Shown here: piece after piece, positions 7,545 through 64,000 of the stretch
Layout: every line of letters starts with the position of its first letter
Numbering within the stretch: the first letter of the stretch is position 1
Assembly: GCA_044892525.1 (NCBI GenBank)
Contig: CM097885.1
Location: 20,772,001 to 20,836,000, forward strand
Length of the DNA stretch: 64,000 nucleotides
Reading direction: 5' to 3'
Origin: Schmidtea polychroa
Lineage: Eukaryota
Notes under the pieces: model-generated
Seen by the model: only the letters and a program-made list of their open reading frames with translations
Database searches by the model: none
Told to the model about the DNA's origin: nothing
Made by a program: the position numbers and the translations under genes

Positions 7545-8117
7545 AATTTTCATTAAATTATCTGTCAAATCTCTACCAGTCAAATCTGTTCTGCAAATTA
7601 CACGAGACAACACATAATCTTCATAAATTATCATATTGTTTGGTACAACATTTCTGGAATCTAAAAAAATGCCGGTAGTTTTTCCTGAAACATAGAGCGA
7701 CAGCATAGCATAGATAGCAACATACACAGAATGAATATTGAATGTTTTAAACATGATTTGAATAATATTTTTTCTGTTAGCTTTTGGTTTCAATGGCACT
7801 TTGGTAAGAAGAACTGGATATTCTTCTGGTCAAATTCTCGATTAATTGTAAAATATATGATACCAGATTTTTCTCATATCATCCAAATTAGTAACAATGC
7901 CATGTTTAATGTGATATTTTATCGTTAAAATACCTATTGGACTAGGCTTCATTACTCACATAGCTACCTACCTTGTCCCATTCCAATCATAACATCTTAA
8001 TGATAATATCTTCCTATAATGGATGGAAAAAACTTTTGGAACACTATCAACCGCAAATCCGGCTCTACGCACAAAACATCCACTATCAATTACTAAGGCA
8101 TTAATATCCTGAAACAT
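7545..8117 (-). pseudogene. Actin pseudogene (N-terminal ~190 codons; stops and frameshifts)
   Basis: MFQDINALVIDSG..RAGFAVDSVPKVFPSIIGR..H*DVMIGMGQ...PLKPKANRK...[14 protein letters not shown] follows the actin consensus. Confidence 0.9.
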
Positions 8118-8163
8118 TGAACTATGAATTATTTTTCAAAAACATTTGAACTGGAACGATAGA

Positions 8164-8665
8164 AGTAGAGGGATAGCGGCCCACTAAACCAGCGGCCCTC
8201 TGGGACAAAGACATACCCCTACCCCCCCCCCCCCGCCATTTAAAAATTTTTTTTCAAGGTAAAATTTTAAACAAAGACATATGACTCATCAAGGTCATTG
8301 AAACAAAGGCTATGACTCATTCAAGGTCATATGACTCATCCCATGACTCATTCAAGGTCATATGGCTCATCCGATGGCTCATTCAAGTTCATATGACTCA
8401 TCCAATGACTCATTCAAGGTCACATGACTCATCCGATGATTCATTCAAGGTCATTCTCAAGGTCATATGAGTCATGCGATGAGTCCTGCTAAATTTTTTA
8501 AAATTTAAATTCTCAGAGTTCCCGCCAATGGTTTTTATTATTTAATAGCTCATTCGAAAGGTATTTGAATGGTGAGTATTTGAGCCCATCGAAGGTCTAT
8601 GGAGGTTCAATAACCTTCAAAGTGTTCAATGGTATTGGTTACACTCAACATCTCACAAGGGTATT

Positions 8666-8756
<91 letters not shown>

Positions 8757-9250
8757 GTATTAATATATATACTCCGAGTCTATCCGACAAAATATTTTGT
8801 CCCCCTATGGGTAATGCTCACAATGGTACTGTTCACGCTCAACAACTCGCAAATCTACAAATCAACAAAACATACATCTATTTAAATAATAAAATAATGT
8901 AAAATTAACAAAGGTAAACTAAATATTGATGTACTACTATTCGCAGCATTATTGTTTGAAATTGGTAACGTTGAATTGATTTTCAGATATTCTATTGATC
9001 CTTTGATTGTTTGAATTTCGCTTAATAATAATTCAATCTTTTTAACAAATAATCATGCTTCTTATCAATAATTTTCATATTCTTTTTATTTTTAATAATA
9101 GAGTTATCGAAAACTTCAATATGATCAATCAATTTAATTTTTATATTTTTTATATTTTTATATACAAATGATAGTTCATAGCTGTTTTCTAAATTCTCCA
9201 ATCTTTGAGATATTCTTTTTCCTGGGTGCTTTGACCATTTTGGTTTGTCG
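8164..9250 (+). repeat. Left terminal inverted repeat of Polinton 1
   Basis: Reverse complement of ~23229-24395, including the mirrored ORFs 8565-8885 / 23589-23966 and the DKPKWSKHPGKRISQ segment. Confidence 0.92.
8281..8475. promoter_or_regulatory. ~31-bp tandem array of TGACTCA (AP-1) and TCAAGGTCA (NR5A/ERR-type) motifs in the left TIR
   Basis: Unit approx. TATGACTCATCCNATGACTCATTCAAGGTCA; about 8 TGA(C/G)TCA and 6 TCAAGGTCA. Confidence 0.7.
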
Positions 9251-9348
9251 TCAAACAAAGGTATACTCTGAGTTAATCCGACAAGATATTTTGTCCCCTT
9301 ATGGTTATTGCTCACAATAGTATTGGTTACACTCAACATCTCATAATG

Positions 9349-9433
<85 letters not shown>

Positions 9434-9442
9434 TATTACTTA

Positions 9443-9495
<53 letters not shown>

Positions 9496-9599
9496 ATCAT
9501 TATTATTATCATTATTATTATTTAAAAATGTATAAAATTGAAACTATCACAAGTTTTCAAAATACCAATAAAAATGAAAATGACCATATTAAAAGTAGT

Positions 9600-9990
9600 T
9601 ATCATTACTAATAATAAAAATGTTTAAACTTGAAAATTATCACATGTTTTCAATATAACAATAAAAATGCAAATATTAAAAGATGTTATTATTACGATTA
9701 TTAAAAATGATTAAACTTGAAAACTATTACAAGTTTTATATACACCAATAAAAATGAACACATGAAGTCTAGTTTTTTTTTTTTTTTTTTTTTAAAAAGA
9801 TATATTTTTAATAATATTCATCATTATCATTATCAGCTAATAATATATCATCAATATCAACATCTATATCGATACTATCATCGAAATCTGGGTTGAAATC
9901 TCCACGAAGCGGTCGAACATCATCCAATATTTGATGCTTATCATAGAAATCTTGGCTGAAATCTCCACATAGCTGGTTACAATCAACATA
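9600..9990 (-). repeat. Diverged tandem duplicate of the pPolB acidic 3' end and its downstream region
   Basis: QILDDVRPLRGDFNPDFDDSIDIDVDIDDILLADNDNDEYY* vs pPolB QILEEVGPLCGGFSPDFDDSIDIDVDIDDIILTDDDDDDYY*; downstream non-coding DNA is also repeated. Confidence 0.85.
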
Positions 9991-10011
9991 TCGCAAGTTT
10001 ATTTTTATTAC

Positions 10012-10072
<61 letters not shown>

Positions 10073-10296
10073 ATTATTATTATTATTATTATCATTATTA
10101 TTATTTTTATTAAAAAATGTTTAAACTTGAAAACTATCACATGTTTTCAAAATAATAATAAAAATACACATATTAAAAGATGTTATTATTACGATTATTA
10201 AAAATGATTAAATTTGAAAACTATCCGAAGTTTTTAATACATCAATAAAAAATAAAAATGAACACATTAAAAGTCTAGTTTTTAAAGAAGATATAT

Positions 10297-13151
10297 TTAA
10301 TAATAGTCGTCATCATCATCATCAGTTAATATTATATCGTCTATATCAACATCTATATCGATACTATCATCGAAATCTGGGCTGAAACCTCCACAAAGCG
10401 GTCCAACTTCCTCTAATATTTGATCACTTTCATCGAAATCTGGACTGAAACCTACAGAGAGCGGTCCAACTTCATCCAATACTTGATCATTATCTACAGC
10501 ATCAACCCCAAAATAATGCCTAAATGCGATACTATTATTTTTCCCCACCCATAATCGCTTGTCATCGTTATTTGTCAATGCGATTTTACTATTTTTGATG
10601 GTATATAGCTGGTGGTTCCGCGTCCCTATCCTAGTTTGCGGCACTGCAAATTCTACGTTGTTATTGTAGCAGTCTAAATATGACTGGTGCCCAATCTCTG
10701 TCCCCATTAATTTCACCCCTTTAGCCCTCATAGTATCTTTGACACCTAATAAACTATAGCACTTAGGTCTTAAGAAAACCCATTCCTTATACCCGAGACC
10801 TCTGCTTTCATCTTTAAATTTTCCTATCACAGAATCAAGGTTTCTCGAGTATAAGGGGTGTGCGGGATCATAATTAGAGGTATCTAGAAGATTATCTCTT
10901 ATCATTGCCGGCAAAAGAGTGTCTAGCTTACAGTGCTTAACCTCAAGAAAAAACGAATCAGTATCGCCGGCAACGATATTTATATCACATAAGAATTTGG
11001 ATCTATATTTTGCCAATTCATTATATTGCAGTTGATACATGCGTAGTGTAGACAGGTCTAGCACTGATTGGCCTATGTAGCTAGGCCTGTATAAACATAT
11101 AATATCTTTATTAAGATGAACCGCAATCAGATCATCCGCTATTTTAATTGATTTTTTGAAAGTTTGTTTGGAGGCGTATACAATCATCTTTGCTGATGAA
11201 TTGCATAGCCTCAAATTCATACGTTTTTTCAAATTCTCTACTGATTTACCATAGAGACTATTATTGAATAATTTATATAGATCTCTATACAGTTCACATG
11301 TTGATTTTGAACGTAAATTAGTATTTCGATCTATATATGTTTTGAAAATTGTTGATTGTTTAAATTTAATTGCTCTATGTACATGCTCAACTTCCTCACC
11401 TAATTTTATATACAGCTTGAGAAGCCGCCAATGAACATGGTTCTTCTTAGGCCAATGCGTGAGCATAAGCTTCTCAACTTTTGAATTAGGTGGACACATT
11501 TTTTCCGGAGCAAGCGGAAAATCATTCAAATATTCATGCACACGATTAGGGATATTGATGTCTTCTTCCATAGTATAACCATATGGAAGGTTTTCAATAT
11601 CTGCATTCACGCATTCACTCAACACATCATTCAGATTTTCATACACCCAAACAAAGTCACCATACGGAAGATTTTGGCTAAGAGCCCAACCATATAAATT
11701 ATTTATATCTATATACAAAAGTTCTGTATCTTCAGAACTTGCTACATAATGTTTGTTAACAAATGTTAACCCACCCCGTATTCCACCTTCGTAGAAATTA
11801 TACATTTCCATATCCTGTAGAACTTCTATAGGTTCCTGTAATGTCATGAGCGCTGACGCCCATGACATACCTGGAATTCCATAGAAGTTTAAAGGTTCAA
11901 GGCCGTTATAAGCAATTGCTTTGGCACGGAATTGCTGAAAATAATCTGCCAAGAGGAATACGTCCAATTTAAGGTACGTTAACATATAGTCTAACATTGT
12001 TTCGCAATTTTGCTGAACCCAGATTTCTTGGGCGATAGCATTTTCTTCATTAGATACAGAACTCCAAATCGGAGGTAATTCATGAGTAGATTCAAGAATT
12101 TCGAGTGATGTTGCAAAGTCGTAAGGAAATATGCCCTTTGCTCTCACAATACTACCATCAAAAACAGAAGAAGTTAAAGGTAAATCTGAAAGAGTTTTAA
12201 CTGCCTTTGCTAACGATGAGTTAACAAATTGCATACTGTCGATAAAACGAACAGTCAATTTGTTAATATTTACAATCAAGGATATAAATTTTTCAGTGGT
12301 GGTTGGAACGATATTTAATTTCCAAGATGGAAAATCATTCAAACCATACTTTAAAATGTGATGTAAGTCATACCCCTTCAAATTATGAAAGACAATGGGT
12401 AACTGTTTGTTTATTCTCCTAGAAACATTGCAATTTCTACAGGCAGCACCAAGATACTTACCTGTGAAATGATCATGGTCCTTAACCTTATCTTTTATAA
12501 AATGTTTACAGAGATAACAAGTCCTACAGTTGTTGAACTCCAGTTCCTCATTGAAAGACAGAGTATTAATGAATTTTCTACCATGAATTTCATAATACGG
12601 GAGGACAATTGTGACAGCAATTTCCTCCACCTTCTTTAAAATTTCAAAAACACATTCCAAGCCTATAAAATTAAAATATGATGTTGTGTTAGTGTAATTG
12701 TTAATTAATAATAGACCTGCTGTTATTGGTTTGTGCATTTGGTGATGATTTATATTCCCAGGTAAAATAGCCTCAAAGTCCGCGTATATTACGAACGGTG
12801 GGGTAATCATCTTTGAATAATCTTTAAACGTTAAATTTTTATTTTTAGGGAGCGTGTAAAGGGTGGTTCCTATTTGATTTTTAGCGCACAATGCAACATG
12901 TACCTTAAAGGTTTTGAATTCTTTAATTTCTCCATCTTTTTCAATTTGAATAAGAACTGTAAACTGGACTTTTACAGATCCCATCTTTTCAATTTCCACA
13001 TTAATTTTATTTATAATTTTATCCGTAAAGGAGATTTGAATTAAGTTTTTATGTTCTAAATCAAATCGAATATTTTTACGGGAACCCTTTAAATCTATCT
13101 CTATTTCAGGTTCATCATTTATATCTATTTGAATATTTTCTATATTGTTTT
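10297..13151 (-). CDS. Protein-primed family B DNA polymerase (pPolB) with EndoVII-like insert; 5' exon not located, N-terminal region short
   Basis: YADFEA, CYLC..DHDHFTGKYLGAACRNCN, FHNLKGYDLH, YIDINNLYG, KLFNNSLYGK, GDTDS; the poly-I start of the ORF track is an (ATT)n tract ending in a likely acceptor AG at 13152-13153. Confidence 0.93.
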
Positions 13152-13152
13152 C

Positions 13153-13208
<56 letters not shown>

Positions 13209-13345
13209 TAATAATTGCCCCAAATAAATGTAGCTTGCAGTGAGCATGCATCTACATCTCTTCTCATATAATAATAATAATAATTATTCCAATAAAAGTA
13301 GTTTGCAGTGAGCATGCATCTACATCTCTTCTCAAATAAAAATAC

Positions 13346-14031
<686 letters not shown>

Positions 14032-14217
14032 TATGACAGATTTGTTACATGTATTAATTTGTTAAAATATTATTATCAATTTATGATTTATAAAGATTTA
14101 ATTACTTATCAAATAAAGTTTTTGAATAATTAATCATTTAAATTAATACATTTAACGAAGTGTTTTAGTAAAAATTTGTTAAATATTATAAAAAATAAAT
14201 TAAAAAAATAAAAAATG

Positions 14218-14851
14218 CTAACATTTCCATTCCATATCGGAATCAGAATCATCTTCTAATTCATCCCGCATAGGGGCATCTCCAATATCAGTGGGGGCAT
14301 CAGAGTCATCAACTGCATTTGCAATAAATGTGGAGGCATCAGATTCATTGACGACATTTCCAATATCAGTGGGGGCATCAGAATCATCAACTGCATTTGC
14401 AATAAATGTGGATGCATCAGATTCATTGACGACATTTCCAATATCTGTGGGGGCATCATCGACGATATTATTAACTACTCCTTCATTTGTAACTACATTT
14501 GTTTCATTATCTGAAGGTTCTTCTTAAATATATTTAATAAATAAAATAAAACTTACCACTGTCATCACTAATAATGATTTCTTCATCATCGGTTATAATA
14601 ATAAGTTCATTATCTTCCATAAGATTAATTTCATCTAAATATTAATAATTTAATAAATAAATAAATAATTTAATTTACCATCATCATCGTCACTAATAAT
14701 AATTGGGGCATCGTCCATATTATTTTCTGCTTCGGTAACTTCGTACCATAAATTAGCTAAATGTGAATAAAATAATAATAAATAAAAGAAAAAAAAATTT
14801 ACCGTTTTCTCCAGCCAAAATTGCTCTTAAAATATTATTTTGATTATTCAT
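14218..14851 (-). CDS. Spliced 169-aa acidic protein with several SIM-like motifs; exons 14851-14803, 14756-14679, 14634-14557, 14522-14218
   Basis: Three phase-1 GT-AG introns (46, 44, 34 bp) give an open frame MNNQNNILRAILAGENANLWYEV...PIIISDDDDDEINLMEDNELIIITDDEEIIISDDSEE...DSDMEWKC*. Confidence 0.85.
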
Positions 14852-15279
14852 TTTGAAATTGTTGATAATTGTTTTGTTTGCAAATTTGTAAATAAATATT
14901 TTTTAAAAGTGACAAATTTGGAATTTGTGAATGTTTATAAAGAAAATGAAAATTCCCTGTCCCAGCCAATCAGAATTTAGACACACACATATATAAACTA
15001 AATATTTTACTCTCTTGACCAATCACATTGCGTCTACACATGCCTTCTTATTTTTCATGTGACTGTCTTTATTAGTCACGACTTTGTTAAGATGCACTGT
15101 GCATGCTCCAGGCATGTGATGTCTTTATGACAAAAATAATAATAATATTTTTCAAAATAATAATAAATTTAAATAAAAATACTAATTTTTAATCAAATAA
15201 TAATATTAATAATATTATTATTAATAATAATAATAACAATAATAACAATATTAATAATAATACTAATAATAATAATAAT

Positions 15280-15372
<93 letters not shown>

Positions 15373-15410
15373 TTGAAATAAAAGATAAATAAAGCAAATA
15401 ATTGCAAGAA

Positions 15411-15458
<48 letters not shown>

Positions 15459-15613
15459 TATAATAATAAGAACAACAAAGGATACAATATACATTTATTA
15501 AACATCAAATTTTTTATACAACAAATTTTTTATACAACAATTTTTTATACAACAATTTTTTATACAATAATAATAATAATAATAAGAACAGCAAAGGATA
15601 CAATATACATTTA

Positions 15614-15998
15614 TTAACCATCAAATATTTTATACAACAACCAAGCTAAACAATGTTGACCACATGTTTGGGTCAATCGATTTTGAAACATAGTTTTATT
15701 ATACATAATAGGTTTCCCCATTGTTTGCAGTTTTGATATCAATAAAGCCGGGTAATAAAAACCCATAGGATCGAATACGAATATATTACTAGGTTTCACA
15801 CATATAGCTATCCAATGTTCTCCACCAAGATGAGACGATTGAGTATTGATGATTATGGCTTGATTATTTCTCAAATATGGAATTTTATCGAGAGGAAAAA
15901 CTCCTACAAATTCATTTCCCAATATCTGTTTTCCAATTCGATTAACCTGAACAGAACTACTTTAATAAATTAAATAGTATCAAAAAAACTTACTCCAT
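15614..15998 (-). CDS. Adenain-like cysteine protease (116 aa; 5-nt first exon, intron 15960-15993)
   Basis: ATGGA|gtaagt...attaaag|TAGT gives MDSSVQVNRIGKQILGNEFVGVFPLD; catalytic motifs GEHW, FDPMG, QTCGQHC. Confidence 0.92.
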
Positions 15999-16025
15999 GA
16001 CAACTTTCTATATTTCTGTACACAT

Positions 16026-17234
16026 TTATACCAACACAGTTCTATTTGCAGTAATTTGAACTTCATTTTCAAATACTCCATAGATTATTACATGGACTGG
16101 TTCAGAAATTGCTTTTGCAAACTTTATATCCAGTCGTAAATTTCCATTTTGGGGTAATTGACTCTGATTTAAATCAAAATTGGGGGCTAAAACAAATGTA
16201 AAAAATGGGTATTTGGTTTTAAATTCTTCTAGAGTTATTCCACAATTCGAATTTTCATCTAAATAACCCAGATTTCTAACAATACTCTGCATATATGTCG
16301 CACAGTAATTGTCATTCTCGAAATCTTGAATATATGTTTCTCTATAATCAGTATTTTTCGACAAAGTCAATGATGTACCACCAAAGTTTTTGAAAATTGA
16401 GTTGGACGCAGTATATGATCCATTATATTGTGTTTCACTTTGAAATGTTATCAGAATAAAATTAGGCAGTCTTCTATCACCAAATATTTGTTCTTTATAG
16501 AATGATGAAGCACCTTTAGCAATAGCGAATTGTACAATTTCCTTTGTTTTTAATGGATAAATTGCATGTTTTGAATTAAGACCTAATTGATGACCAGCTA
16601 ATACTGAGGGGTCTACTCGAACTCTTCTCACCAATAATTTTGCATCAACTAATTGACATATTGGTGCACCAATTTCACTAGTAAGAGATAATGCAGAATC
16701 AGACCTTTTCAGTCTAATGTGTAGTAAATATTTCGGTTGATCCATAAAATCGAGTTGTAATGATGAGCACATGGTGAAAACCTTTGAGCCTTTAACCCAC
16801 TTTTTTCTTTCATCATCTGCTGCTGCATAACCCATAGGAGTAAGGCATGTATTTTTAGTATCGGAATTGTAATTTAAAATAGTTTCTATTAATGCCTTGT
16901 GAATGAATGTATTATTTCCACCCTCAATCTTGATATTATTAAATCCCAACACTGCATCTTTAAACAGAGTATGAAACATGAAATTGTTCGGTATTACATC
17001 GGCATTGGCATCCAAAACTTTTCTATCTTTATCTACAATCTTGATCTGAACAGTCAATAAAGTATCGTTCAAATCTAAATATTCAGTTTGCGAACCATTA
17101 ATATAAAACTCTATATCATTTCTACTATCGGTAATTGAATTTATAGGAAAAGCTTCCTCAAACGCCCCAAATTCAATTACCGCTTGAGGCGATGGTCTAT
17201 CAAGTATACATAATTCAGATTTACCACAAATCAT
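16026..17234 (-). CDS. Polinton major capsid protein (double jelly-roll)
   Basis: CGKSELCIL...IEFYINGSQTEYLDLNDTLL...GNLRLDIKFAKA motifs typical of Polinton MCP. Confidence 0.88.
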   Translation of the reverse strand: MICGKSELCILDRPSPQAVIEFGAFEEAFPINSITDSRNDIEFYINGSQTEYLDLNDTLLTVQIKIVDKDRKVLDANADVIPNNFMFHTLFKDAVLGFNNIKIEGGNNTFIHKALIETILNYNSDTKNTCLTPMGYAAADDERKKWVKGSKVFTMCSSLQLDFMDQPKYLLHIRLKRSDSALSLTSEIGAPICQLVDAKLLVRRVRVDPSVLAGHQLGLNSKHAIYPLKTKEIVQFAIAKGASSFYKEQIFGDRRLPNFILITFQSETQYNGSYTASNSIFKNFGGTSLTLSKNTDYRETYIQDFENDNYCATYMQSIVRNLGYLDENSNCGITLEEFKTKYPFFTFVLAPNFDLNQSQLPQNGNLRLDIKFAKAISEPVHVIIYGVFENEVQITANRTVLV

Positions 17235-17599
17235 TTTGCAAATATAGTTCCATGTCCTTTCATTCGTTTGTTTATACGTGATATTCCATGTCTTTTACGT
17301 TTTGGAACAGGAGCTGGAGCTGGAGATTTTTCTTTTTGAAACATACCTGCAACCCCGGGTAAAACTTTCCCTAATTCAGCTAAAGCATTTGTTTTTGGAG
17401 ATGGTAATATTTTCTGTTCATTCATAATAACATCTTTTGCAGTTTTCATACCAAAACTACCAATACGTTTAAGAATAGGCAATGCAAATCTACCAATTGT
17501 TCTCAACCATCCCGATCCGTACTGTTTACCAATAAAATATGGTAATTCACCGCCAGATTGGCTACCACTATACATACTAATAATATCAGAATTCGGCAT
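17231..17599 (-). CDS. Small virion-core / membrane-active precursor (QxGxG plus amphipathic helix, basic tail)
   Basis: QSGGELPYFIGKQYGSGWLRTIGRFALPILKRIG; lies between the minor and major capsid genes. Confidence 0.7.
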   Translation of the reverse strand: MPNSDIISMYSGSQSGGELPYFIGKQYGSGWLRTIGRFALPILKRIGSFGMKTAKDVIMNEQKILPSPKTNALAELGKVLPGVAGMFQKEKSPAPAPVPKRKRHGISRINKRMKGHGTIFAK

Positions 17600-18659
17600 C
17601 TACTTTACGAAAATGTAATGTCAAATGGGTTTTTGAACCTTTTAGAAAGTTTATAAGTTTTCCACTATCATCACGAATATTTATTTCTATATTGTTTATA
17701 CATGAACTTGCTATTGGTAAATACATGGGATTATCGATATTTATATTGACAACTTCATCATGTTCATATTTTCCAATCCATACCGATTTCAAAAGAGGAA
17801 CACTGGAATCACCAACAATTATGGGTTCGATAATGTTAGTATATATGAAAATTTGTTGATGATGTTCTAGTATTCTTGGTTTGCGTATACCAGTCGATTT
17901 TTCTCGATATTTTTGCTTATATAATCCAAGTGAATTTGCAAAATTTTTATCAAATGTAACTTCGCAAATATCATCATTCAAAATGAAGGTAAACATCAAA
18001 TCTTTCACAATTTCCAAATTTTTAAATATGTGTGAACAATTGAACTTTAAATATTTAAGTAATATATCAAGTTTATCAAAATATAATTCATCAGCAAAGG
18101 TGAATGATTCTTCAACTTCATCATTATACGACACAGATATTTTGATTTCTTCTTTCACTATACTGTTTGCTTCAAATAGATTAAAACGTAATAAATACTC
18201 GGTCTCCGTAATAATATTTTTCAACTTATTGCAACCCATTCGTTTGGCATCTTCAATAGTTTCGAATGTTATTGTAAATGGTTTAAAATCACAACTGATA
18301 TTTAATCCATCCTTGTAAAACATATAGCAATGCGAATCTAAAATTTGATTCGGAATATGATATGTTTTATCATAATTACTGATAACAAAGATACCGCTAC
18401 ATGTTTTCACAATATTCCTTTTGAAATCAATCTTACATTGACTATAAAATGGGAATGTATTGTACACGAATGTAAAATCTTGCAGTGCAACTTCCCAGTC
18501 ACCATTTAAAGAAATCGGATTCTGGAGATTGACCATGAATTTACTGGCTTGATTGTCTGGATGAATTAATGGGCAACTATTGCTCGGCAAAATAGTATAA
18601 AAATTCACTTTACTAGATCTTTTGCTGATATCCATGACGGGTTTTGATAACCATGCCAT
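17586..18659 (-). CDS. Polinton minor capsid protein (penton); exact start uncertain
   Basis: FYTILPSNS...PDNQASKF..L..PISLNGDWEVAL; FIYTNIIEP..VGD..VPLL; IEINIRDDSGKLINF...LTLHFRK. Confidence 0.9.
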   Translation of the reverse strand: MAWLSKPVMDISKRSSKVNFYTILPSNSCPLIHPDNQASKFMVNLQNPISLNGDWEVALQDFTFVYNTFPFYSQCKIDFKRNIVKTCSGIFVISNYDKTYHIPNQILDSHCYMFYKDGLNISCDFKPFTITFETIEDAKRMGCNKLKNIITETEYLLRFNLFEANSIVKEEIKISVSYNDEVEESFTFADELYFDKLDILLKYLKFNCSHIFKNLEIVKDLMFTFILNDDICEVTFDKNFANSLGLYKQKYREKSTGIRKPRILEHHQQIFIYTNIIEPIIVGDSSVPLLKSVWIGKYEHDEVVNINIDNPMYLPIASSCINNIEINIRDDSGKLINFLKGSKTHLTLHFRKVDAEF

Positions 18660-19243
18660 TTGACATAGTATTGTTTATCCTTGCCGACCTTTTTAGTTTT
18701 CAATATTTTTTGAATTCTAAATACTTTTGGGGGAGGAATGACTTGTAATTCCTGCTCATAAAATTTCCCTTGTACAATATTATTACCATTATCTTTGATG
18801 ACATACATTACAGGATTCTGTTTAGTATTTATTTTTGAAATTACAAAGACTTCATCACTCCAATTTGTATCAAAATTTTTAATAAATGGTGATGCACTAA
18901 TTTTACTAATTCTAACATGGTCACCAACTTTATATTTAGGTTTTGCAATTTTTACAGAATTTTTAGAAGTCAATGATGTTTTTGATGTAATATCAACCGG
19001 TCTCAATCCATTCAGTCCTCGATGTGATGAATGATTATAACTTGTTATTATTTTCGGTAATACATTTACCCATTTTTTATTAACTTGATGCACGAACAAT
19101 TTCTTTAATCTATCTCTCAATGTTCGATTAAATCTTTCGACATGGGCAGCTTTGTATTGAGAATGTACCGAGTAGTGATTTATTTTCAGTTTATCGAGAA
19201 TTTGCTTAACTTTGCTATTGTAGAATTCTTTATCTAAAATAAT

Positions 19244-19341
<98 letters not shown>

Positions 19342-19597
19342 CTAAATCTGTTTGCAAGTTATTAGGATGTCCATCTTTAAATAAAATATTAATTACCTTG
19401 GACATTTCTTCTGCAGATTTTGCCTTGACTGGTATTGCTCGTGCAAACCTGCTGTATACATTAATACATGTTAAAATATATTTATTCCCATTGTTAATTT
19501 TCGAATAAGGTATCATCTCCATCAAATCCATTTGCCATAAATCGTCAATACCAAATGTTTTATATTTAATGTCGGGCAATGAAGGATTAGCACCCAT
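18605..19597 (-). CDS. Retroviral-type DDE integrase with C-terminal chromodomain; microsatellite-filled intron 19234-19341
   Basis: WQMDL, LQTD, HVERFNRTL, YYVKWHGY..SWI; the poly-I run is bounded by GT...AG (108 bp). Confidence 0.93.
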
Positions 19598-19600
19598 TGT

Positions 19601-20134
19601 TTATGATTGATTTCCTACAACTCCACCTAATAATGATAATACCAGAGGTATCAATGCACCAATAAATCCACCTTGTTGTTTATATATAATTTTCCTCATT
19701 TGCTTACGATTTTTATTATTTACTAATGATAACAAAGGTTTCCTATGTTTGCTCAATAAATGCTTTTTTGATTTACTGATTTTAATTTTGCCTTTGACTA
19801 CTTTAAGTATAATATTGAGTAAATCATCGACAACAAAATTTGGGAATGATTGCAATATATTCATTCTTTTCATACTCGGGGCCTTTAACAATGCATTAAA
19901 AAATGGAAAACTGCGATGATTTTTAACTACTTTTTTACCGGTTTTACGGGTTTTACGGGTTTTACGTTTAGGTTTAGGATTTTTCGAAATAAGATTCATT
20001 GCAGAGAAATTTTCAGTTACAAGTTTTTTAGATGGTGTATAACTAGTTGTTGGTGGAACTTTTGGAATTTTAATACTCTTTCTAATACTTTTTCTTAATT
20101 TCCTAATATTTGTCACCCTTGCTTTTAGAAACAT
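19601..20134 (-). CDS. Basic core-protein precursor with C-terminal GG^F hydrophobic tail
   Basis: K/R-rich (KRKTRKTRKTGKK); ends QQGGFIGALIPLVLSLLGG, resembling adenain-cleaved core precursors. Confidence 0.7.
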   Translation of the reverse strand: MFLKARVTNIRKLRKSIRKSIKIPKVPPTTSYTPSKKLVTENFSAMNLISKNPKPKRKTRKTRKTGKKVVKNHRSFPFFNALLKAPSMKRMNILQSFPNFVVDDLLNIILKVVKGKIKISKSKKHLLSKHRKPLLSLVNNKNRKQMRKIIYKQQGGFIGALIPLVLSLLGGVVGNQS

Positions 20135-20152
20135 TATTATTCATAGAGGTTT

Positions 20153-20779
20153 TCAACTTTGTTTATAAACCATGGCACCTTTTGGGTTGAAAATATCTGT
20201 TTTTACTCGTAAATCATCGGGACATTGTTGTGTGAAATCAAGAAATATATATCCATGAGGTATTTTTGTAGCGTCTTGAAATGCACTGATAAGAAAATTA
20301 CGATTGTTAGGGTATGCTTGACGTGCAAGAAAATCAATCACTGTTGCATCTCTAGGATTCTTGAAAATAACTAAATATTGTACATTTAAATTACGTGTTC
20401 GATGTGCCCCACCTTGATGAAATAGATTTTGTGTTATGAAAATAACTGTTACACCGACATGTCTGCTGATCTTTGTAAATAAATTATTAAAATCTTTTTC
20501 TTTATTAGCTTCTTGATACAAATCATCGATAATAATGACATCGCCTTTCTTTAATCGGCTGGACCAGTTTTTATCGAATCCCTTTACTATTTTCATGTTT
20601 TTTAATTTACAGAAACTTGATTGAGTTAATCCATGTTCTTCATCAGCACCCCTATGCCAATAAATCCTGTTGAATTTTGATTTGAATAAATTTGATTTTA
20701 GTAATTTACAAACAAATAATGTTTTTCCACTACCACTCGGACCAACGATTTGGTATACTGCATCATTTCTTAATTCCAT
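20153..20779 (-). CDS. A32/FtsK-like genome packaging ATPase
   Basis: Walker A GPSGSGKT, Walker B IIIDD, SRH..VTVIFITQN; likely start is MELRND at 20779. Confidence 0.93.
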   Translation of the reverse strand: MELRNDAVYQIVGPSGSGKTLFVCKLLKSNLFKSKFNRIYWHRGADEEHGLTQSSFCKLKNMKIVKGFDKNWSSRLKKGDVIIIDDLYQEANKEKDFNNLFTKISRHVGVTVIFITQNLFHQGGAHRTRNLNVQYLVIFKNPRDATVIDFLARQAYPNNRNFLISAFQDATKIPHGYIFLDFTQQCPDDLRVKTDIFNPKGAMVYKQS

Positions 20780-20882
20780 TTCAAAACTTTTATAAATATA
20801 TGTGTATTTGTTTATATTCGATGATTTAATGAACTCGTGCTCAATTTGTATATAAAGACTAATTTTCATAAATGATTTAATA

Positions 20883-21320
20883 ATGTTAGCAAATATAAAT
20901 TATCGAGGAAATTTTGATGTATCGAATATGAGGTTCCCACCAGAGAAACCCCAGCAAATTATCGATAGAAGCGGGAAATATCCGATAATATTTTTCAAGA
21001 CTGGTAAATGCAGAATCATGGGATGTAAGAAACCTTTGGATATTAATAAATTACAATATCGAATAAATAATATTACAATCCAATCAATTACCGTTACTAT
21101 GGATATGGGACATAGTATCAATCTATATAACATGTCGAAAAAATGTGATTGTATGTTTGAACCGGAATTGTTTCCGGCACTAAGACTATTAAAATATAAC
21201 CCTATATGTGTCAACGTGTTTGCTAGTGGAAAGGTTGTCATGTTGGGGTTGAGAAATTTGGAGTATAGAGAATTTGTTGATAATGTTCGAAATGAGATAA
21301 TTTCATTGGTCGATTTCTAA
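20883..21320 (+). CDS. TATA-binding protein (TBP)-like protein, 145 aa
   Basis: IFFKTGKCRIMGCK / ITIQSITVTMDMGHSINL / FEPELFPAL / VNVFASGKVVMLG align with TBP LIFASGKMVVTGAK / FKIQNIVGSCDVKFPIRL / YEPELFPGL / LLIFVSGKIVLTG. Confidence 0.9.
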   Translation: MLANINYRGNFDVSNMRFPPEKPQQIIDRSGKYPIIFFKTGKCRIMGCKKPLDINKLQYRINNITIQSITVTMDMGHSINLYNMSKKCDCMFEPELFPALRLLKYNPICVNVFASGKVVMLGLRNLEYREFVDNVRNEIISLVDF

Positions 21321-21379
21321 TTGGTTATTGATTGATTTAAACAAACGGTTTTTTGTTTAGGATTCATTTATTCAACAAA

Positions 21380-21789
21380 ATGTACAAAATACCAAGCGCA
21401 GCAAATCTAATGAAAGATATTGACGACTATGGTAAATTTAAAATTTTATTTTCACATTTTTTATATTTATTATTTTAGAAAAATATTTAGAAGTAATGCT
21501 GAATAGGATAAAATATTATTATCCTCAAATTGCAGAAATAATCAAGGATAGAGAACCAGAAATCATTCCAGATCTCATATTCTATTCCACTCAAATTAGA
21601 ATCATGGAGGTATTCCATCAATTCCTATGGGATATCAAGATTAATAGAACCATGAAACAAATGGAGCCGGAGTACCAATGTATGTTCGGATGTTCATGTT
21701 GTGCCGATCGATATCGGCGATATGTCGAATGGGAGTTAGTGAAAACTCTGAGAAGGTTTCACTACTCCCGGATTGTTGATAAATATTAA
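21380..21789 (+). CDS. Spliced 120-aa hypothetical protein with Cys cluster (intron 21432-21478)
   Basis: ATG at 21380; G|gtaaat...ttttag|AA joins in frame to ORF 21496-21789; QCMFGCSCCAD. Confidence 0.75.
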
Positions 21790-22090
21790 TAAATGTATTT
21801 TTGTTTCTATTGCGTTTTTATATTTGAAATAGTAATAATAATAGTAATAATATAAATAATAATAGTAATAATAAAATAAATAGTAATAATAATAATAGAA
21901 ATAATATAAATAGTAATAATAATAATAATATAAATAATAATAGTAATAATAATATAAATAGTAATAATAATAATAGAAATAATAGAAATAGTAATAATAA
22001 TAATAATAATAATAGAAATAATAATAGAAATAGTAATAATAAAACATTAATAATAATATGTCACATTAATAGAACATAAATGCAGCATTA

Positions 22091-22168
22091 ATGCAAATGA
22101 CATGCAAATTTAAACAAAGACATGCTATAATCTGATTGGTTGATAGGCATGAGTCAAAGGTATAAAAA
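22091..22168 (+). promoter_or_regulatory. Compact Pol II promoter: 2x octamer, AACAAAG, inverted CCAAT, AP-1, TATA
   Basis: ATGCAAAT (22091, 22102), AACAAAG, GATTGG (22134), TGAGTCA (22150), TATAAAA (22161), ATG at 22202. Confidence 0.6.
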
Positions 22169-22201
22169 CCATGTAACATTTCAATTTAATCATTATTCAC
22201 T

Positions 22202-22636
22202 ATGACCAAGAAAATTTCATGCACCGAAAAACCTAAAGAAATGGTACAACCAGTTCAAATGTTCCACAACTACAAAATGTATTTTTTGAAAGACGAAATC
22301 ATTATGAAATTGGTTGCACCAGTCAAGCTAATTCCAACTAAATTTCAATTCTTATCCGGCACGCTTTCAATGATTGATGTCAAAACTATTGATGATGTTT
22401 TTAAACGGTTAGATTCGAATCTATCGTGTAATCAACATGCATGGTTCAACAATAGATATGCAAGATTTTATGATGCTTTTGATGAAATCAGTTTCAAAGA
22501 AAATGAAAATTGGTATATAACAATTGCAATCCAGGGATATAAAGTTGATAATAATGATGTATATTCTCCTATTTGGAAAATTGTGTCTGCTAGACTTTCA
22601 CAAATATTTCACAAATATCCATGGTTGAAACTTTGA
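22202..22636 (+). CDS. Hypothetical 144-aa protein (possibly OB-fold ssDNA-binding)
   Basis: Clean ORF with upstream TATA; beta-rich aromatic C-terminal half WYITIAIQGYKV...YSPIWKIVSARL. Confidence 0.65.
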   Translation: MTKKISCTEKPKEMVQPVQMFHNYKMYFLKDEIIMKLVAPVKLIPTKFQFLSGTLSMIDVKTIDDVFKRLDSNLSCNQHAWFNNRYARFYDAFDEISFKENENWYITIAIQGYKVDNNDVYSPIWKIVSARLSQIFHKYPWLKL

Positions 22637-22674
22637 CTTGATTATCTAGAAAATAAATATTAATAAAATATAGA

Positions 22675-22986
22675 TTATAAAAGTATTACTTCTTGAGACC
22701 ACTGATAATAATGTTCCGAGTGCCATAAACCTTTTTCGATTATGATCTTCATATAAGCGAACCCTACTAGTATTCGGGTCCACTTCATCTCATCGTCACA
22801 TAGGCAGTTAAAAATCCTATGAAAATAGAATTTTTTCGTTTCCAAGCACTCGGAATTGATCATATCCTGATAATCGATATGATTTCCTTCGATTATCTTT
22901 TCGGTCCGGTCCACTAGGAAACTCAGGCTTTCCAAAATGTTCTTGTTTATAATTTCGCTTAAAAGATTTTCCATAAAATGAGACAT
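22675..22986 (-). CDS. Bcl-2-like protein (BH1-like motif), 103 aa
   Basis: FHRIFNCLCDDEMKWTRILVGFAY resembles BH1 F..V...F.DG..NWGRIVA.F.F. Confidence 0.6.
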   Translation of the reverse strand: MSHFMENLLSEIINKNILESLSFLVDRTEKIIEGNHIDYQDMINSECLETKKFYFHRIFNCLCDDEMKWTRILVGFAYMKIIIEKGLWHSEHYYQWSQEVILL

Positions 22987-23091
22987 TTCTACAATAATTT
23001 AAAATATGATGTTTTATTTATACTAATACCGTATGATTTTGATTGGTTGATAGACTATAAATGTAAAAGAAAGGCTTTGATTTGATACACA

Positions 23092-23502
23092 ATGAAAACT
23101 ATATTCATATTGCTAATTGTTATAACGAGTGTGTGCTCACACAATGCAACAATAACAGTGGAGTCTTTTAATAAATCGATATGTGTTTGTCCGAATACAG
23201 CCAAGTTGATGGATATTTTATATATTCTCGATAAACCAAAATGGTCAAAGCATCCAGGAAAAAGAATATCTCAAAGATTGGAGAATTTAGAAAACAGTTA
23301 TGAACTATCATTTGAATATATACAAAATATAAAAATTACATTGATTGATCATATTAAAGTTTTCAATAACTCTATTGTTGAAAATAAAAAGAATATGAAA
23401 ATTATTGATAAGAAGCATGATTATTTGTTAAAAAAGATTGAATTATTATTAAGAGAAATTCAAACAATCAAAGGATCAATAGAATATCTGAAAATCAATT
23501 GA
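23092..23502 (+). CDS. Secreted coiled-coil protein, 136 aa; 3' part lies inside the right TIR
   Basis: Signal-peptide-like MKTIFILLIVITSVCS; heptad-like C-terminus; upstream GATTGG and TATAAA. Confidence 0.7.
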   Translation: MKTIFILLIVITSVCSHNATITVESFNKSICVCPNTAKLMDILYILDKPKWSKHPGKRISQRLENLENSYELSFEYIQNIKITLIDHIKVFNNSIVENKKNMKIIDKKHDYLLKKIELLLREIQTIKGSIEYLKIN

Positions 23503-23717
23503 ACGTTACTAATTTCAAACAATAATGCTGCGAATAATAGTTCATCAATATTTAGTTTACCTTTGTTAATTTTACATTATTTTATTGTTTAAATAAATGT
23601 ATGTTTGTTGATTTGTTGATTTGCGAGTTGTTGAGCGTGAGCAGTACCCTTGTGAGCATTACCCATAGAGGGAACAAAATATTTTGTCGGATAGACTCGG
23701 AGTATATAGATTATTAC

Positions 23718-23810
<93 letters not shown>

Positions 23811-24395
23811 TAATAATAATAATAATAAAAATAATAATATTAATAATAATAATAATAGTAATAATAATACCCTTGTGAGATGTTGAATGTAACCAATACC
23901 ATTGAACACTTTGAAGGTTATTGAACCTCCATAGACCTTCGATGGGCTCAAATACTCACCATTCAAATACCTTTCGAATGAGCTATTAAATAATAAAAAC
24001 CATTGGCGGGAACTCTGAGAATTTAAATTTTAAAAAATTTAGCATGACTCATCGCATGACTCATATGACCTTGAGAATGACCTTGAATGAGTCATCGGAT
24101 GAGGCATGTGACCTTGAATGAGTCACCGGATGAGTCATATGACCTTTAATGAGTCATCGGGCGAGTTATATGACCTTGAATGAGTCATTGGATGAGGCAT
24201 ATGCCTTGAAGAGTCATGGCATGAGTCACATGACCTTTAATGAGTCATCGGATTAGTCGTGGTCTTTGTTTCAATGACCTTGATGAGTTCTATATCTTTG
24301 TTTAAATTTTGACCTTGAAAAAAAAATTTAAAATGGAGGGGGGTATGTCTTTGTCCCAGAGGGCCGCTGGTTTAGTGGGCCGCTATCCCTCTACT
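23229..24395 (-). repeat. Right terminal inverted repeat of Polinton 1
   Basis: Mirror of 8164-9250, with a longer TGAGTCA/TGACCTTGA array at ~24044-24290. Confidence 0.92.
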
Positions 24396-26381
24396 GATGG
24401 AAAACATATTTTTTAAACCACAGGAATTCTAATAACATAAAATCAAACAAAAACCACAGGGGAAATATTCAATCACAAAATTGGAGAAAAAATAAAATAA
24501 ACAAATTCAGCATTTGAAACATATCGATTCTCACAATAACGGAAAAATTGACAACGAAAACACAATCCAATTCCACCTACTCGGCTTGTACAAATGTCAT
24601 TCTATGCACACAGACGTGAGTAATTGGAATTAACCAATTAAAATGAAAATTATAAAATTATGATTTCTTTGTAGCAGCATTAATTCAATGTTAAACAATT
24701 AATAAGAAAAATAAGAAAAAAACCATAATTTGACTTATCAAAACAAAAATATTAATTATCTGATGATGACAGTGAGTCTATAGAAATAAATTGTAAGCTG
24801 TGATGTCTTGAAATTTTATTATCTATTTCTACTGTTGATTTACAACAGGATTTACAAAATTATCCATGGAGCTTTGAAATATATATTCCGTATTGTTTGC
24901 TTCAACGAGCACAAACCAAAAATACTGTATATGACCAAGTTTTGGAAGAATCATACTAAAATTAATTAATTTGTTATGACTTGATTTGTTTTGACATCTT
25001 CAATAGATTAGAAATTTAAAAAAAATGTATTTTCTATCCTATAATTGAGACGAAAGGAGCCATTGTGTTTAAGGGGTCCCTGCGACCCACAGTCTGAAGA
25101 ACCAGTGCTGTGCTATGACATGAACGCCGAAGCGGGCCTCTGGAAAAATTGCGCATCACCACCGCCATTCTATAACCGGCTCATTGTTTTCAACTACCGC
25201 AACTTCGGTACTATTTCGGTGCAACTTCTCAGAGGTAAGTACAAAGAAACGAACAAACCTAATGTTATATTCTAATGTTATATTCGTAGATTCTGGAGTA
25301 GTTATTATTCACACGTTTTTGTGTTTATAACTAACAGAACATAGATATTTTTATATTTCAAAAATATGATACATTTCTGTCGCTGGGCGCTGGGCCGGTT
25401 GGCCTGAAACAATACATAAGAATAATTTCATGGAGTGACAAACAATCATAGACAGTAATATTTTGCATTTTGGTGTCACCGCACTCCCGCACCCCCATAG
25501 CGACGCCAATGTACATAATTATGAAATATATAGTACATAGTACATAGAATGAAACCTATATTCAAAATATTTGATTAAGAATAATTAAAAGCATACATAA
25601 GGAAAGCAGCGGTTCCCAATCTGCGGAGCATGTACCGGTGCCGGATAAGTGATAAATTAATAATGAAAACAATATAACATTTACAGTACATCTTCATGTG
25701 TTTGGGAACCTTTTCAAAAACCAGTTAATGATTTTGGAAAACTTTATTGTGGTAAGGCTAGTCGTTTTTTGCTGGACAAAATCTTAAGAAACAAGTGATG
25801 CAAAAAGGTTTTTACTTCAATATTTAGGAAAAACTTTTATTGTTCATTTCTGCAAAAATATATACTTATAGGTACGCCATTATATTGGACTATACTACCA
25901 GGAACATCGTCTTTAAAAACAGTTGAAACCTCTTAAATAGAGGATTTGAAATATATAAATATGGAAACACTATTCAAATAATAACTGGTGATTAATTAAA
26001 ATCTGCGAATAAAATTTTAATTTAAAAAATTCATCGCCGACAACCTAATGTATCAGATTCATTTTGTTACATTTTGTAATTATGTCGCTCCATTTATTAT
26101 TTCATCAAACATGATTCACTCACATTTGCGATGCTGGACATTGAGAGTCACACTCGCCTCTCGTCACTCTCGTTTGATCTTCCATGGAGATTAACTGGGT
26201 CCAAAAATAACTTGATTTCCATTATCAAAAATGGCTTCAATTTATGAGACATTTTAACATAAAATGAACATAAAGTTGATTAGACCTGCATTTATATTCA
26301 CAAATTGTGGTTATATTAAAAATTTATTTTTAATTTTGAAACTAATATTTCTTGGTTTTCAACTATGAATTCATATATAAC

Positions 26382-31396: not shown

Positions 31397-33715
31397 GATA
31401 AGAAATGAGAGAAAAAAAGGCTTGTTAAAGTTCGTATTGAAGTGAGAATGAGCGATTTTAGGTCTAAATATTTTATTTAATAAACACTGCGAAAGTGGCT
31501 TACGTAATTATTTATTTGAATTATATTTGTATAAATGAGTGAATGAATGAACAAAACAAATTACTGGATTCGAAGTATTACATATACGAATAAGTTGAAG
31601 ATAACTTTATTTTTCATATTTAAATATATTCATATAGACTACGGTGGATCATCACGCCTCAGGGGTGGGACATGTTAGCAATTATCAATTATTCCACATA
31701 CATTCTTTTTAATATAATATGCTTATTCACGACTAAATATAACAACGTACATACAGCAATTTCACCGACCGTTATTTTTGCATAATGTCAATACTGATTA
31801 TCGAAGTTTGACAGCTACTTTAAAGGGGCCTGGTGGAGCATATGAATTTTGAAAGTACTACGGTGGAGCATATAACTTTTGAAATACTACGATGACTCAT
31901 GGTATAAAGAAGGTCGGGAAACACTGATATAAACAGGCGCGTATTCTCTTACACCTATGTAAGTTTACTATAGGCGTGTTAATTTTCAAATTGCCTCCGC
32001 TCCCTCAACTATTAAAATGTTAATATTAAATAAAAAATATATACTAAATAAAATGTGTGAGTTTTTGTCATTAACAAAATTGACAATTAATAAAACTCTA
32101 TTTAGGCTAATATAAAAAGTTAATAACAAAAAACAAATGAATAATTATACACAATTACAGTTCACAAAATTTCTATAATAACAATTTTTTCTTTTATCAT
32201 AAATATTTATTATTAGGATAACATCGTTTTGTGAATCACTAAATAACTCCATAAACTTTATTTAAGCAATTATGCACTAAATTTTAATGTTTTCTAATTG
32301 TTTGTTATTTAAACAGTTTCCATCTTCTATTTAAAATATTTTTATATAATAAATATTTTTAAAATTTTAAAATTCCAAAAATTTACAATTAAAATCTTTT
32401 AGATTCTTCCAGCTTCTTCATATTTATTATTTCCTGTTTAAATTAAAATTTACTGTCAAAAGATCCCATATAATGTCAATTTGTGTATTTTTTATTATAG
32501 AAATTGTTTATAATTATCCATTTGCTTTTTGTCATTAACTTTTTCTATTAGCCTAAACAAAGTTTTATTAATTGTCAAATTTGTTAGTAAAAGTGTGGCA
32601 CTGTCTCACAATGTCCTTAACTGATGATTGTGAGACGGATGGATTCATTTTCCTGACTGACAACAATGTCCGATTTACTCCAAAATGATGATCTGTGTGG
32701 AAATTCCGTATTAGATCCATGTTTTCATCAACCTTACTTGCACTTAAAGCAGTCTCTACATTAGGCTCAAAACCGTTGTATCTGTTTTCAGTTGTAACAA
32801 CATCGCATTCGGCACCTTCATCATTTCGTCTGCCTTGTTTAACTCCGTCGGCACTAACTCCACCGTGACCTTCAGACTGTATTCATTTATAATCGACTTG
32901 AACATCTCAAGGCGACGTCGGACCAATAATTCGGATTTGGTCTTGAATCATCATTGAGTACCGCATAAAAACAGCTATACAATTAAGTCAAACCACTTGG
33001 AACTTCCAATCAATGAGTATTTCTATTTCTTTCAATGTAGAATCTAGGTCAACGGGATTTATGTGAGCTGCATGGTCTGACTTGCGCAACCAAGTTAATA
33101 ATCACGCTTTCAGGTCAGTTTTTCATATTTTCTTACACATTTTTATGGCTGCAATGCAAAAAACTCACTTTAATTTACAAAAAAATCACAAATTTAAATT
33201 TAAATTTGTTTCATTTTTAATGAGCTATAAATCACATACTATAAATCCACCGTAGTACTTTCAAAATTCATATGCTCCACCAGGCCCCTTTAAAGTAGCT
33301 GTCAAACTTCGATAATCAGTATTGACATTATGCAAAAATAACGGTCGGTGAAATTGCTGTATGTACGTTGTTATATTTAGTCGTGAATAAGCATATTATA
33401 TTAAAAAGAATGTATGTGGAATAATTGATAATTGCTGACATGTCCCACCCCTGAAGCGTGATGATCCACCGTGATTTATATGAATATATTTAAATATGAA
33501 AAATAAAGTTATCTTCAACTTATTTGTATATGTAATACTTCGAATCCAGTAATTTGTTTTGTTCATTCATTCACTCATTTATACAAATATTATTCAATTA
33601 AATAATTACGTAAGCCATTTTCGCAGTGTTTATTAAATAAAATATTTAGACTTAAAATCGCTCATTCTCACTTCAATACGAACTTTAACAAGCCTTTTTT
33701 CTCTCATTTCTTATC
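31397..33715. repeat. ~470-bp inverted duplication (31397-31867 and 33246-33715) around a ~1.4-kb spacer
   Basis: GATAAGAAATGAGAG...GTACTACGGTGGA is mirrored by TCCACCGTAGTAC...CTCTCATTTCTTATC with few mismatches. Confidence 0.9.
32070..32590. mobile_element. Decayed MITE-like element with ~80-bp imperfect inverted repeats
   Basis: TAACAAAATTGACAATTAATAAAACT..TAGGCTAATA mirrored by TATTAGCCTA..AGTTTTATTAATTGTCAAATTTGTTA. Confidence 0.55.
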
Positions 33716-61592: not shown

Positions 61593-61616
61593 GAATTAGA
61601 ATTTTAACACTATAAA

Positions 61617-62171: not shown

Positions 62172-62265
62172 AACCAACGATATTTAATTTTTTAATAATA
62201 AAATGTCGACAATTAATTTAAGCAACTATAGCAACCTGATCTACTTTTTTAAAAATACACCCATT

Positions 62266-62862: not shown

Positions 62863-62870
62863 TTTAATAA

Positions 62871-63881: not shown

Positions 63882-63905
63882 TTATTAATAATTTAAAATG
63901 AATCT

Positions 63906-63998
63906 TCAAACCTGTTTCAAATGTAAATACATTGAAATCTCTTCTCCATTAAAATCAATCAATTCTCCTTCTTGATTAAGAATTTTAAAATTAATATC
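63906..63998 (-). CDS. C-terminal end of the minor capsid protein of Polinton 2 (partial)
   Basis: DINFKILNQEGELIDFNGEEISMYLHLKQV* matches the penton C-terminal pattern also seen in element 1. Confidence 0.8.
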   Translation of the reverse strand, partial: DINFKILNQEGELIDFNGEEISMYLHLKQV

Positions 63999-64000
63999 CA

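Follow-up and report, generated by a model that had tools for sequence, protein, structure and literature searches.

A tandem array of AP-1 and nuclear-receptor words in both terminal inverted repeats of a Schmidtea polychroa Polinton, a candidate host-factor enhancer

Both terminal inverted repeats (TIRs) of a 16.2-kb Polinton/Maverick element from Schmidtea polychroa carry a tandem array, about 240 nt long and situated 78-350 nt inward of the tips, that is built from the AP-1 word TGA(C/G)TCA and the nuclear-receptor word TCAAGGTCA. Judged from its sequence, the array may be an enhancer that answers to host factors (AP-1 and a monomeric nuclear receptor) and serves the CCAAT/TATA-type genes of the element, a proposal to which we give about an even chance. 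A 240-nt array with two nameable words beside host-type promoters is a testable candidate for the trigger of animal Polintons and, if active in a family of many copies, could also act on neighbouring host genes. Tandem AP-1 enhancers are a known principle in viruses. In the literature searched (main texts, open access) we found neither such a location, inside the TIRs of a Polinton, nor a pairing of AP-1 with a monomeric receptor word there.

The element lies in a 64,000-nucleotide window, the whole stretch of DNA analysed, and is a Polinton/Maverick by its gene set, capsid fold model, TIRs, AGT-type ends and 6-nt flanks (Table 1). All hallmarks of the group are present, namely a B-type polymerase, an integrase, capsid, ATPase and protease genes, and TIRs with AGT-type ends, the termini reading AGTAG...CTACT. 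The element agrees with the TIR lengths of 46-1447 bp, the 6-bp target duplication and the AGT-type ends reported in the consulted parts of earlier accounts (PMC8097293, PMC8502044). Foldseek searches with the capsid model retrieved iridovirus, PBCV-1 and virophage capsids with E-values down to 3.5e-16. The integrase ORF scores below the curated cut-offs against two Pfam families, rve (E 2.4e-5) and Chromo (E 2.4e-4), and is 45-47% identical to its counterparts in L130 and L131, two Polinton-type contigs described below. The polymerase, whose 3' end points toward the left TIR, we infer from its sequence to be of the protein-primed type; Pfam DNA_pol_B_2 gave no score on its ORF. Several element ORFs are without a known family, and the 144-aa ORF found none in the Atlas, Pfam or PHROGs. 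Three weak, concordant matches make the 103-aa ORF a likely Bcl-2-like gene: Pfam Bcl-2 at E 0.019 (below the cut-off), an Atlas score of 0.92 to Bcl-2 clusters, and six PDB matches out of six to BCL2A1, all weak (E 0.12-0.3). By analogy we take it to be a possible counterpart of adenovirus E1B-19K.

Table 1. Coordinates of the element, its termini, the arrays and the predicted genes and promoters in the window.
Feature	Position	Strand	Evidence or remark
Left target-site 6-mer	8158..8163	+	5/6 bases same as 24396-24401
Polinton/Maverick (adintovirus-type) element, 16.2 kb	8164..24395	.	ends, TIRs, 6-nt flanks, gene set
Left TIR, 1087 nt	8164..9250	+	TIR alignment
TIR tip, 0/52 mismatches between TIRs	8164..8215	+	three short blocks also at L130 end
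Outer array: receptor and AP-1 words interleaved with two AAACAAAG words	8254..8329	+
Left core array: four 31-nt units; two AP-1 slots and a single TCAAGGTCA slot per unit	8330..8453	+
Inner cap: two inverted AP-1 slots, and a further TCAAGGTCA spaced by 12 nt	8454..8488	+
TTCCCGCCAAT in both TIRs	8519..8529, right 24005	+	overlaps CCAAT word
B-type DNA polymerase	10297..13251	-	PHROG 1907 E 9e-25; 33% identical to L130 polymerase
Adenovirus-type cysteine protease	15614..15961	-	Pfam Peptidase_C5 E 1.5e-6
Major capsid protein, predicted double jelly-roll fold	16026..17234	-	model pLDDT 83.9; Foldseek
Retroviral-type integrase with chromodomain, split by intron-like (ATT)n tract	18605..19597	-	Pfam
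A32-like packaging ATPase	20153..20869	-	Pfam Pox_A32 E 4e-7
TBP-like gene	20883..21320	+	Pfam TBP E 1e-15; 38% identical to L130 counterpart (10246-10698)
Putative host-type promoter of 144-aa ORF	22109..22167	+	15-nt array word, CCAAT, AP-1 (22150), TATAAA
144-aa ORF	22202..22636	+	no family found
103-aa ORF, likely Bcl-2-like	22675..22986	-	start about 1.05 kb from right array
Putative divergent promoter, one CCAAT word and TATAAA on each strand	22987..23091	.
136-aa ORF entering right TIR	23092..23502	+	3' part mirrored in left TIR (9022-9339)
Right TIR, 1167 nt	23229..24395	-	TIR alignment
Right array: six units and outer/inner caps	24041..24318	-

A first-pass annotation of this DNA had described a unit of about 31 bp, with two TGACTCA and one TCAAGGTCA, in both TIRs and had called the right array the longer one. 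Tandem Repeats Finder and the word counts agree with this description, the right array exceeding the left by 41 nt; the left array was placed at 8281..8475, where it does lie, although it is wider, running from 8254 to about 8488. The program reports period 31 with 4.6 copies and 89% matches on the left (8312-8454) and 5.9 copies with 82% matches on the right (24077-24258). Each unit of 31 nt is composed of 12 + 19 nt, and two 9-nt AP-1 palindromes plus one 9-nt receptor word occupy 27 of its 31 nt. There are four full units and a 19-nt half on the left (8330-8453 for the full units) and six on the right (24261-24078, one of them 29 nt long), and the innermost two AP-1 slots of the array are inverted. 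Exact words number eight TGA(C/G)TCA (8282-8474) and six TCAAGGTCA (8289-8465) in the left array, nine and six in the right (24045-24318). When near-matches are included in a manual count over both arrays, exact words fill 17 of 27 AP-1 and 12 of 17 receptor slots, leaving about a third imperfect (10/27 and 5/17). We take the AAACAAAG words of the outer array to be HMG-box or forkhead-like.

Both words exceed chance when compared with shuffled sequence. The 64-kb window contains 26 matches to TGA(C/G)TCA, where 5.05 +/- 2.21 are expected, and 15 to TCAAGGTCA, where 0.34 +/- 0.54 are expected, counts that none of 100 shuffles attained for either word; 17 of the 26 and 12 of the 15 fall inside the two arrays. 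A coding origin of the array was rejected on account of its period of 31 and of its long frames, each of which is broken by stops or lacks a gene.

The terminal 52 nt, identical between the TIRs, likely form the core origin and the integrase site. Between tip and array lies a C-rich run (8216-8237), G-rich on the opposite strand, and the left end is 13 nt longer than the right here. The 165 nt that adjoin the array on its inner side (8491-8655 against 23876-24040) differ at a single position between the TIRs; they contain an E2F/CCAAT-like word and two degenerate unit-like words, and TTCCCGCCAAT is, by our labels, an E2F-like word overlapping a CCAAT word. Words of the type ACAA(A/T)G, presumably HMG-box-like, occur at 8205, 8271, 8303 and 22114 (the last in the promoter of the 144-aa ORF) and also near the L130 tip. 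With a cut-off of E 0.1, Rfam gave no match within 8100-9300. Another copy of AGTAGAGG, at 40033, was rejected as an element end.

The annotation had also named TGACTCA as the AP-1/bZIP site and TCAAGGTCA as an NR5A/ERR half-site. Receptors of the NR5A and NR6 types bind TCAAGGTCA too, and the sequence cannot distinguish whether the array would address a receptor of NR5A, ERR or NR6 type. The ERR part and the AP-1 identity find confirmation in the excerpted text of two sources, which list TCAAGGTCA as the ERR consensus (PMC12112554) and TGACTCA as the TRE (bZIP) motif (PMC13513840). A flatworm FTZ-F1 is described, in a text portion from which the letters of the site are absent, as binding an SF-1 element, with one site within repeated DNA (PMC8673669).

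Promoter words, sought up to 130 nt from the chosen gene starts, divide the genes of the element into two groups of promoters predicted from sequence. CCAAT precedes all three right-end genes, together with TATAAA and with one box shared by two of them, and none of seven core genes; TATAAAC precedes five of the seven core genes and none of the three at the right end. Both CCAAT and TATAAAC stand before a small acidic gene; the TBP-like gene has neither. All eight of eight core genes in L130 are preceded by TATAAAC, and its TBP-like and end-proximal genes by CCAAT. The right-end genes with host-type promoters start 0.95-1.84 kb from the right array, and host-type promoters beside a cluster of host-factor words are what the enhancer reading predicts; the left array is without a nearby gene start. 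The only AP-1 word elsewhere in the element, at 22150, lies between the CCAAT box and TATAAA of the putative promoter of the 144-aa ORF. This promoter and the start of the array also have a 15-nt word in common, a length reached in 9 of 1000 shuffles in a post hoc test.

The capsid has 152 relatives, some of them at 60-72% identity, and end DNA was compared in one of the relatives, L130. The contigs L130-L132 are Polinton-type sequences found in three metagenome-assembled genomes of bacteria, where they are most likely eukaryotic contamination, and they alone match element proteins among the 254 loci listed. The L130 capsid is 44% identical to that of the element (polymerase and TBP in Table 1), and the contig keeps the packaging and capsid genes and three tip blocks but not the array: its 1596-nt end contains no AP-1 and no TCAAGGTCA words, and other words repeat there. 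The window has a second element, at about 56655-64000, which encodes a B-type polymerase of 1383 aa; it probably ends near 56655 and carries a repeat of 16 nt at 57029-57080. The 791 nt before its polymerase contain neither AP-1 nor receptor words. Because one distant relative keeps the tip without the array, and because the second element has no such words, we regard the tip as old and the array as lineage-specific. Such turnover is expected of host-adapted control DNA, which a lineage-specific array fits; it fits a neutral repeat as well, and poorly a conserved element-protein site.

Among the loci listed, wider searches brought up one comparable cluster of words. Viral contigs held no match to an 18-nt stretch of the array and no relatives of the capsid or polymerase; at least 120 of their loci carry the AP-1 plus receptor pair, as single matches among the 80 listed. 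Receptor-word doublets occur at no fewer than 122 viral loci and are taken as coding, since 233 of 241 spacings among the matches listed are multiples of 3. The phage collection gave no match. A metagenome scan for AP-1, receptor and AP-1 words in series yielded nine loci, eight of them single matches and the ninth L125, which alone among the 254 loci listed has at least two of each word within 300 nt. L125 carries 6 AP-1 and 13 TCAAGGTCA words (541-874) on the opposite strand of a coding repeat. It was ruled out as a second such array: the repeat is threonine-rich and precedes a GPCR (7tm_1, E 8.4e-5), and all spacings are multiples of 3. This codon coincidence means that the word pair can arise by accident.

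Word counts alone prove little, because a repeat multiplies whatever its seed contains. The array could accordingly be a neutral minisatellite, in which a TCA/TGA-rich seed was amplified in the TIR by slippage and unequal exchange and the likeness to factor words is incidental, an explanation we consider unlikely. The hallmarks are there, and they are compatible with an enhancer too: units run head to tail, their number is variable and unequal between the ends, and variant units recur within the right array. The array zone is also the most divergent part of the TIRs, with 22 mismatches in 237 positions (9%) against 21 in 473 (4.4%) deeper in, and motif bases are unprotected there, since the two TIRs of this copy differ at 10/84 AP-1 and 4/72 receptor positions (14/156 in all) and at 8/81 others. 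Unrelated repeats occupy the same place in L130, and the unrelated coding repeat of L125 has both words, although its spacings are multiples of 3, whereas the array has a period of 31 and is non-coding. Against neutrality stands the way in which word borders are kept across different contexts: intact TCAAGGTCA variously follows a T run, overlaps an AP-1 word, lies a single base away from one and forms a 12-nt doublet, and the spacers that join AP-1 words differ in contigs of other genomic copies. So does the reappearance of the AP-1 word and the 15-nt array word in an internal CCAAT/TATA promoter. Dinucleotide shuffles of each of two natural units contained both words in at most 0.0001 of 20,000 cases, a figure that takes no account of how many known motifs could have been spotted; trinucleotide and tetranucleotide shuffles of the unit are uninformative because such content is set by the words themselves. 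In eight natural units of 31 nt, with the 29-nt unit and the outermost one on the right omitted, diversity is 0.26 in spacers against 0.115 and 0.056 in the motifs, a difference short of significance (p 0.08, or 0.12 with flanks).

Variation among other genomic copies tends to avoid the words (p 0.016-0.11). This comparison used contigs, rather than reads, of four runs over 8130-8655, with 40 of 66 differences listed, and a site was called variable where the second allele reached at least 10% in both X1 and X4; the thresholds were chosen afterwards, and units can cross-map. Among the listed differences, variable sites make up 1/156 motif positions, 3/35 strict spacer positions and 6/165 positions just inside the array, and the motif-spacer contrast has a Fisher p of 0.026 (0.016-0.11 over five thresholds). 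The sole variable motif site, the middle base of an AP-1 word, stays within the consensus with either letter and may reflect cross-mapping. At the six motif positions where the left array departs from the word, the word is carried by 84-100% of depth in X4 and 49-98% in X1, summed contig depth not being equal to copy number. Contigs of X8 cover the array and none fall on the tip bins, where absent cover proves nothing. The preferential conservation of motif over spacer bases at issue in the first-pass annotation thus appears among genomic copies and fails between the element's own TIRs. On our reading of these sequences, this integrated copy, whose deep TIRs differ at 21/473 positions, would be drifting, while the multiplying lineages would have kept the words.

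The location of the array at both ends invites a role in replication: AP-1 and receptor, once bound, would hold the termini open or bring the polymerase-primer complex to the tip, in the manner of adenovirus NF-I and NF-III and either alone or besides enhancing transcription as in baculovirus hrs. We regard such a role as improbable. It would account for a left array that has no gene start near it, and hrs are described as both origins and enhancers in the portion of the source consulted (PMC13513840). However, the NF-I site of adenovirus spans nt 23-36 and its replication motifs are found in the first 88 bases, as far as the excerpt of PMC6410123 goes, whereas the first receptor slot of the array lies at +78/+91 and the first AP-1 word at +119/+149. 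The array words therefore do not sit at a fixed short distance (within ~90 nt) from the tip; the spacing differs by 13 nt between the ends, and L130 keeps the tip without the array. If a host factor does assist the origin, words of the type ACAA(A/T)G, at +42 in this element and from +27 to +86 in L130, are better-placed candidates. With the array starting at +78 to +91, beyond the conserved blocks of the tip, and continuing to about +350, an adenovirus-style origin, which the annotation had offered as an alternative, is the weaker reading.

About equally improbable is a structural or element-protein site, where quasi-palindromic units would fold in the displaced strand or bind an element protein for packaging or end recognition. 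Single-stranded folding beats shuffles on all four strands (z -1.9, -3.9, -2.9 and -4.5), yet no structure dominates, the minimum-energy structure having a frequency of 0 in all four folds. Neighbouring AP-1 words share their centre base, which would leave a mismatch in any hairpin between them, and TCAAGGTCA is not palindromic. Adenovirus packaging repeats occupy a comparable place near the genome end, and a binding protein could be sought among the element ORFs that lack a known family. On the other hand, the element ORFs scanned include no bZIP or receptor DNA-binding domain, and L130 conserves the packaging and capsid genes without the array.

An enhancer addressed by host factors thus appears the best explanation, as the annotation had suggested, by word context, promoter words and copy variation, and not by motif conservation between the element's own TIRs. 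Counting against it are that same divergence, the imperfect slots, the coincidence in L125 and the lack of the words in the other Polintons compared (L130 and the second element). As an enhancer, the multimerised array would bind host bZIP dimers and a monomer-binding nuclear receptor, with AP-1 giving a signal-dependent input and the receptor acting as a cell-type gate that may activate or repress. Together they would drive the CCAAT/TATA-type right-end genes, the likely Bcl-2-like gene among them, and these would precede the TATAAAC-type capsid and packaging genes in an early-to-late relay through the TBP of the element. The left array would exist because copying of the TIRs keeps both ends alike; unit number would change as in a minisatellite, and selection in replicating lineages would keep the words.

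Taken jointly, these steps would amount to a host-wired programme in three stages. The TIR enhancer would respond to injury or stress within a single cell type, early genes with a Bcl-2-like survival gene among them would follow, and the element TBP would then read a private TATAAAC on capsid and integration genes. The full conjunction strikes us as doubtful. If true, the many copies and gene-less derivatives of the element would seed the host genome with injury-responsive enhancers. That the AP-1 words would confer the wound or stress response proposed in the annotation is plausible. In the consulted parts of the respective reports, some Maverick transcripts of Hydra fall into a cluster with Jun, Fos and creb at an early stage of regeneration (PMC13465017), planarian Polintons are silenced by piRNAs (PMC8532177), and Polinton virions have not been observed in vertebrates (PMC8097293).

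Baculovirus hrs are, by analogy, the closest working model for the array. In the excerpt available they are tandem repeats of an invertebrate DNA virus with clustered CRE/TRE bZIP words (TRE = TGACTCA) and imperfect palindromes; they differ in being dispersed, in their units of about 72 nt with a 30-nt palindrome and in acting with the viral IE1 protein (PMC13513840). The array instead has a 31-nt unit, sits in both TIRs and consists chiefly of AP-1 words with a nuclear-receptor word besides; no IE1-like partner was found. Adenovirus ITRs, as far as the partial text describes them, share host-factor words in inverted ends, a linear genome, a B-type polymerase, and a conserved tip beyond which the sequence varies from lineage to lineage, but have single sites (NF-I, NF-III/Oct-1) within 88 bases of the tip (PMC6410123). 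The array is multimerised, reaches from +78/+91 to +350 and uses other factor classes.

The control regions of polyomaviruses (SV40, JC and BK) are likewise repeat enhancers with AP-1 and a variable copy number and arrangement, according to excerpts of two sources (PMC7601649; 10.64898/2026.09.11.750935), and in the first of these AP-1 acts on the SV40 and JC virus enhancers, tying viral activity to cell state (PMC7601649). Polyomavirus genomes, in contrast, are circular and have a single control region, placed between the early and the late promoter. The late promoter of SV40 is subject to repression by nuclear receptors. Among Polinton sequences, repeats of this origin in C. elegans are described as containing predicted transcription-factor sites (10.1101/2024.01.15.575659), and the consulted portions of published TIR descriptions include no tandem array of defined factor words (PMC8097293, PMC8502044, 10.1101/2024.01.15.575659).

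Intact vertebrate Polintons are called intronless in the literature as excerpted, whereas this element has intron-like interruptions, together with TBP-like and likely Bcl-2-like genes. One GT..AG interruption, in the integrase (19232-19340, minus strand), is filled with (ATT)n and reads through in frame; another lies at the protease start (about 15940-15993, minus), and three short ones lie in the small acidic gene (14218-14860, minus). Hydrophobic-then-acidic repeats, which we take to resemble SUMO-interacting motifs, are found in the small acidic gene and in the polymerase tail (10297-10400, minus). Upstream of the polymerase ORF is a foldback insertion with 237-nt arms of 98% (13377-14030), and elsewhere in the window, at 31413-33700, lies a 2.3-kb element with 455-nt inverted arms that are 98% complementary.
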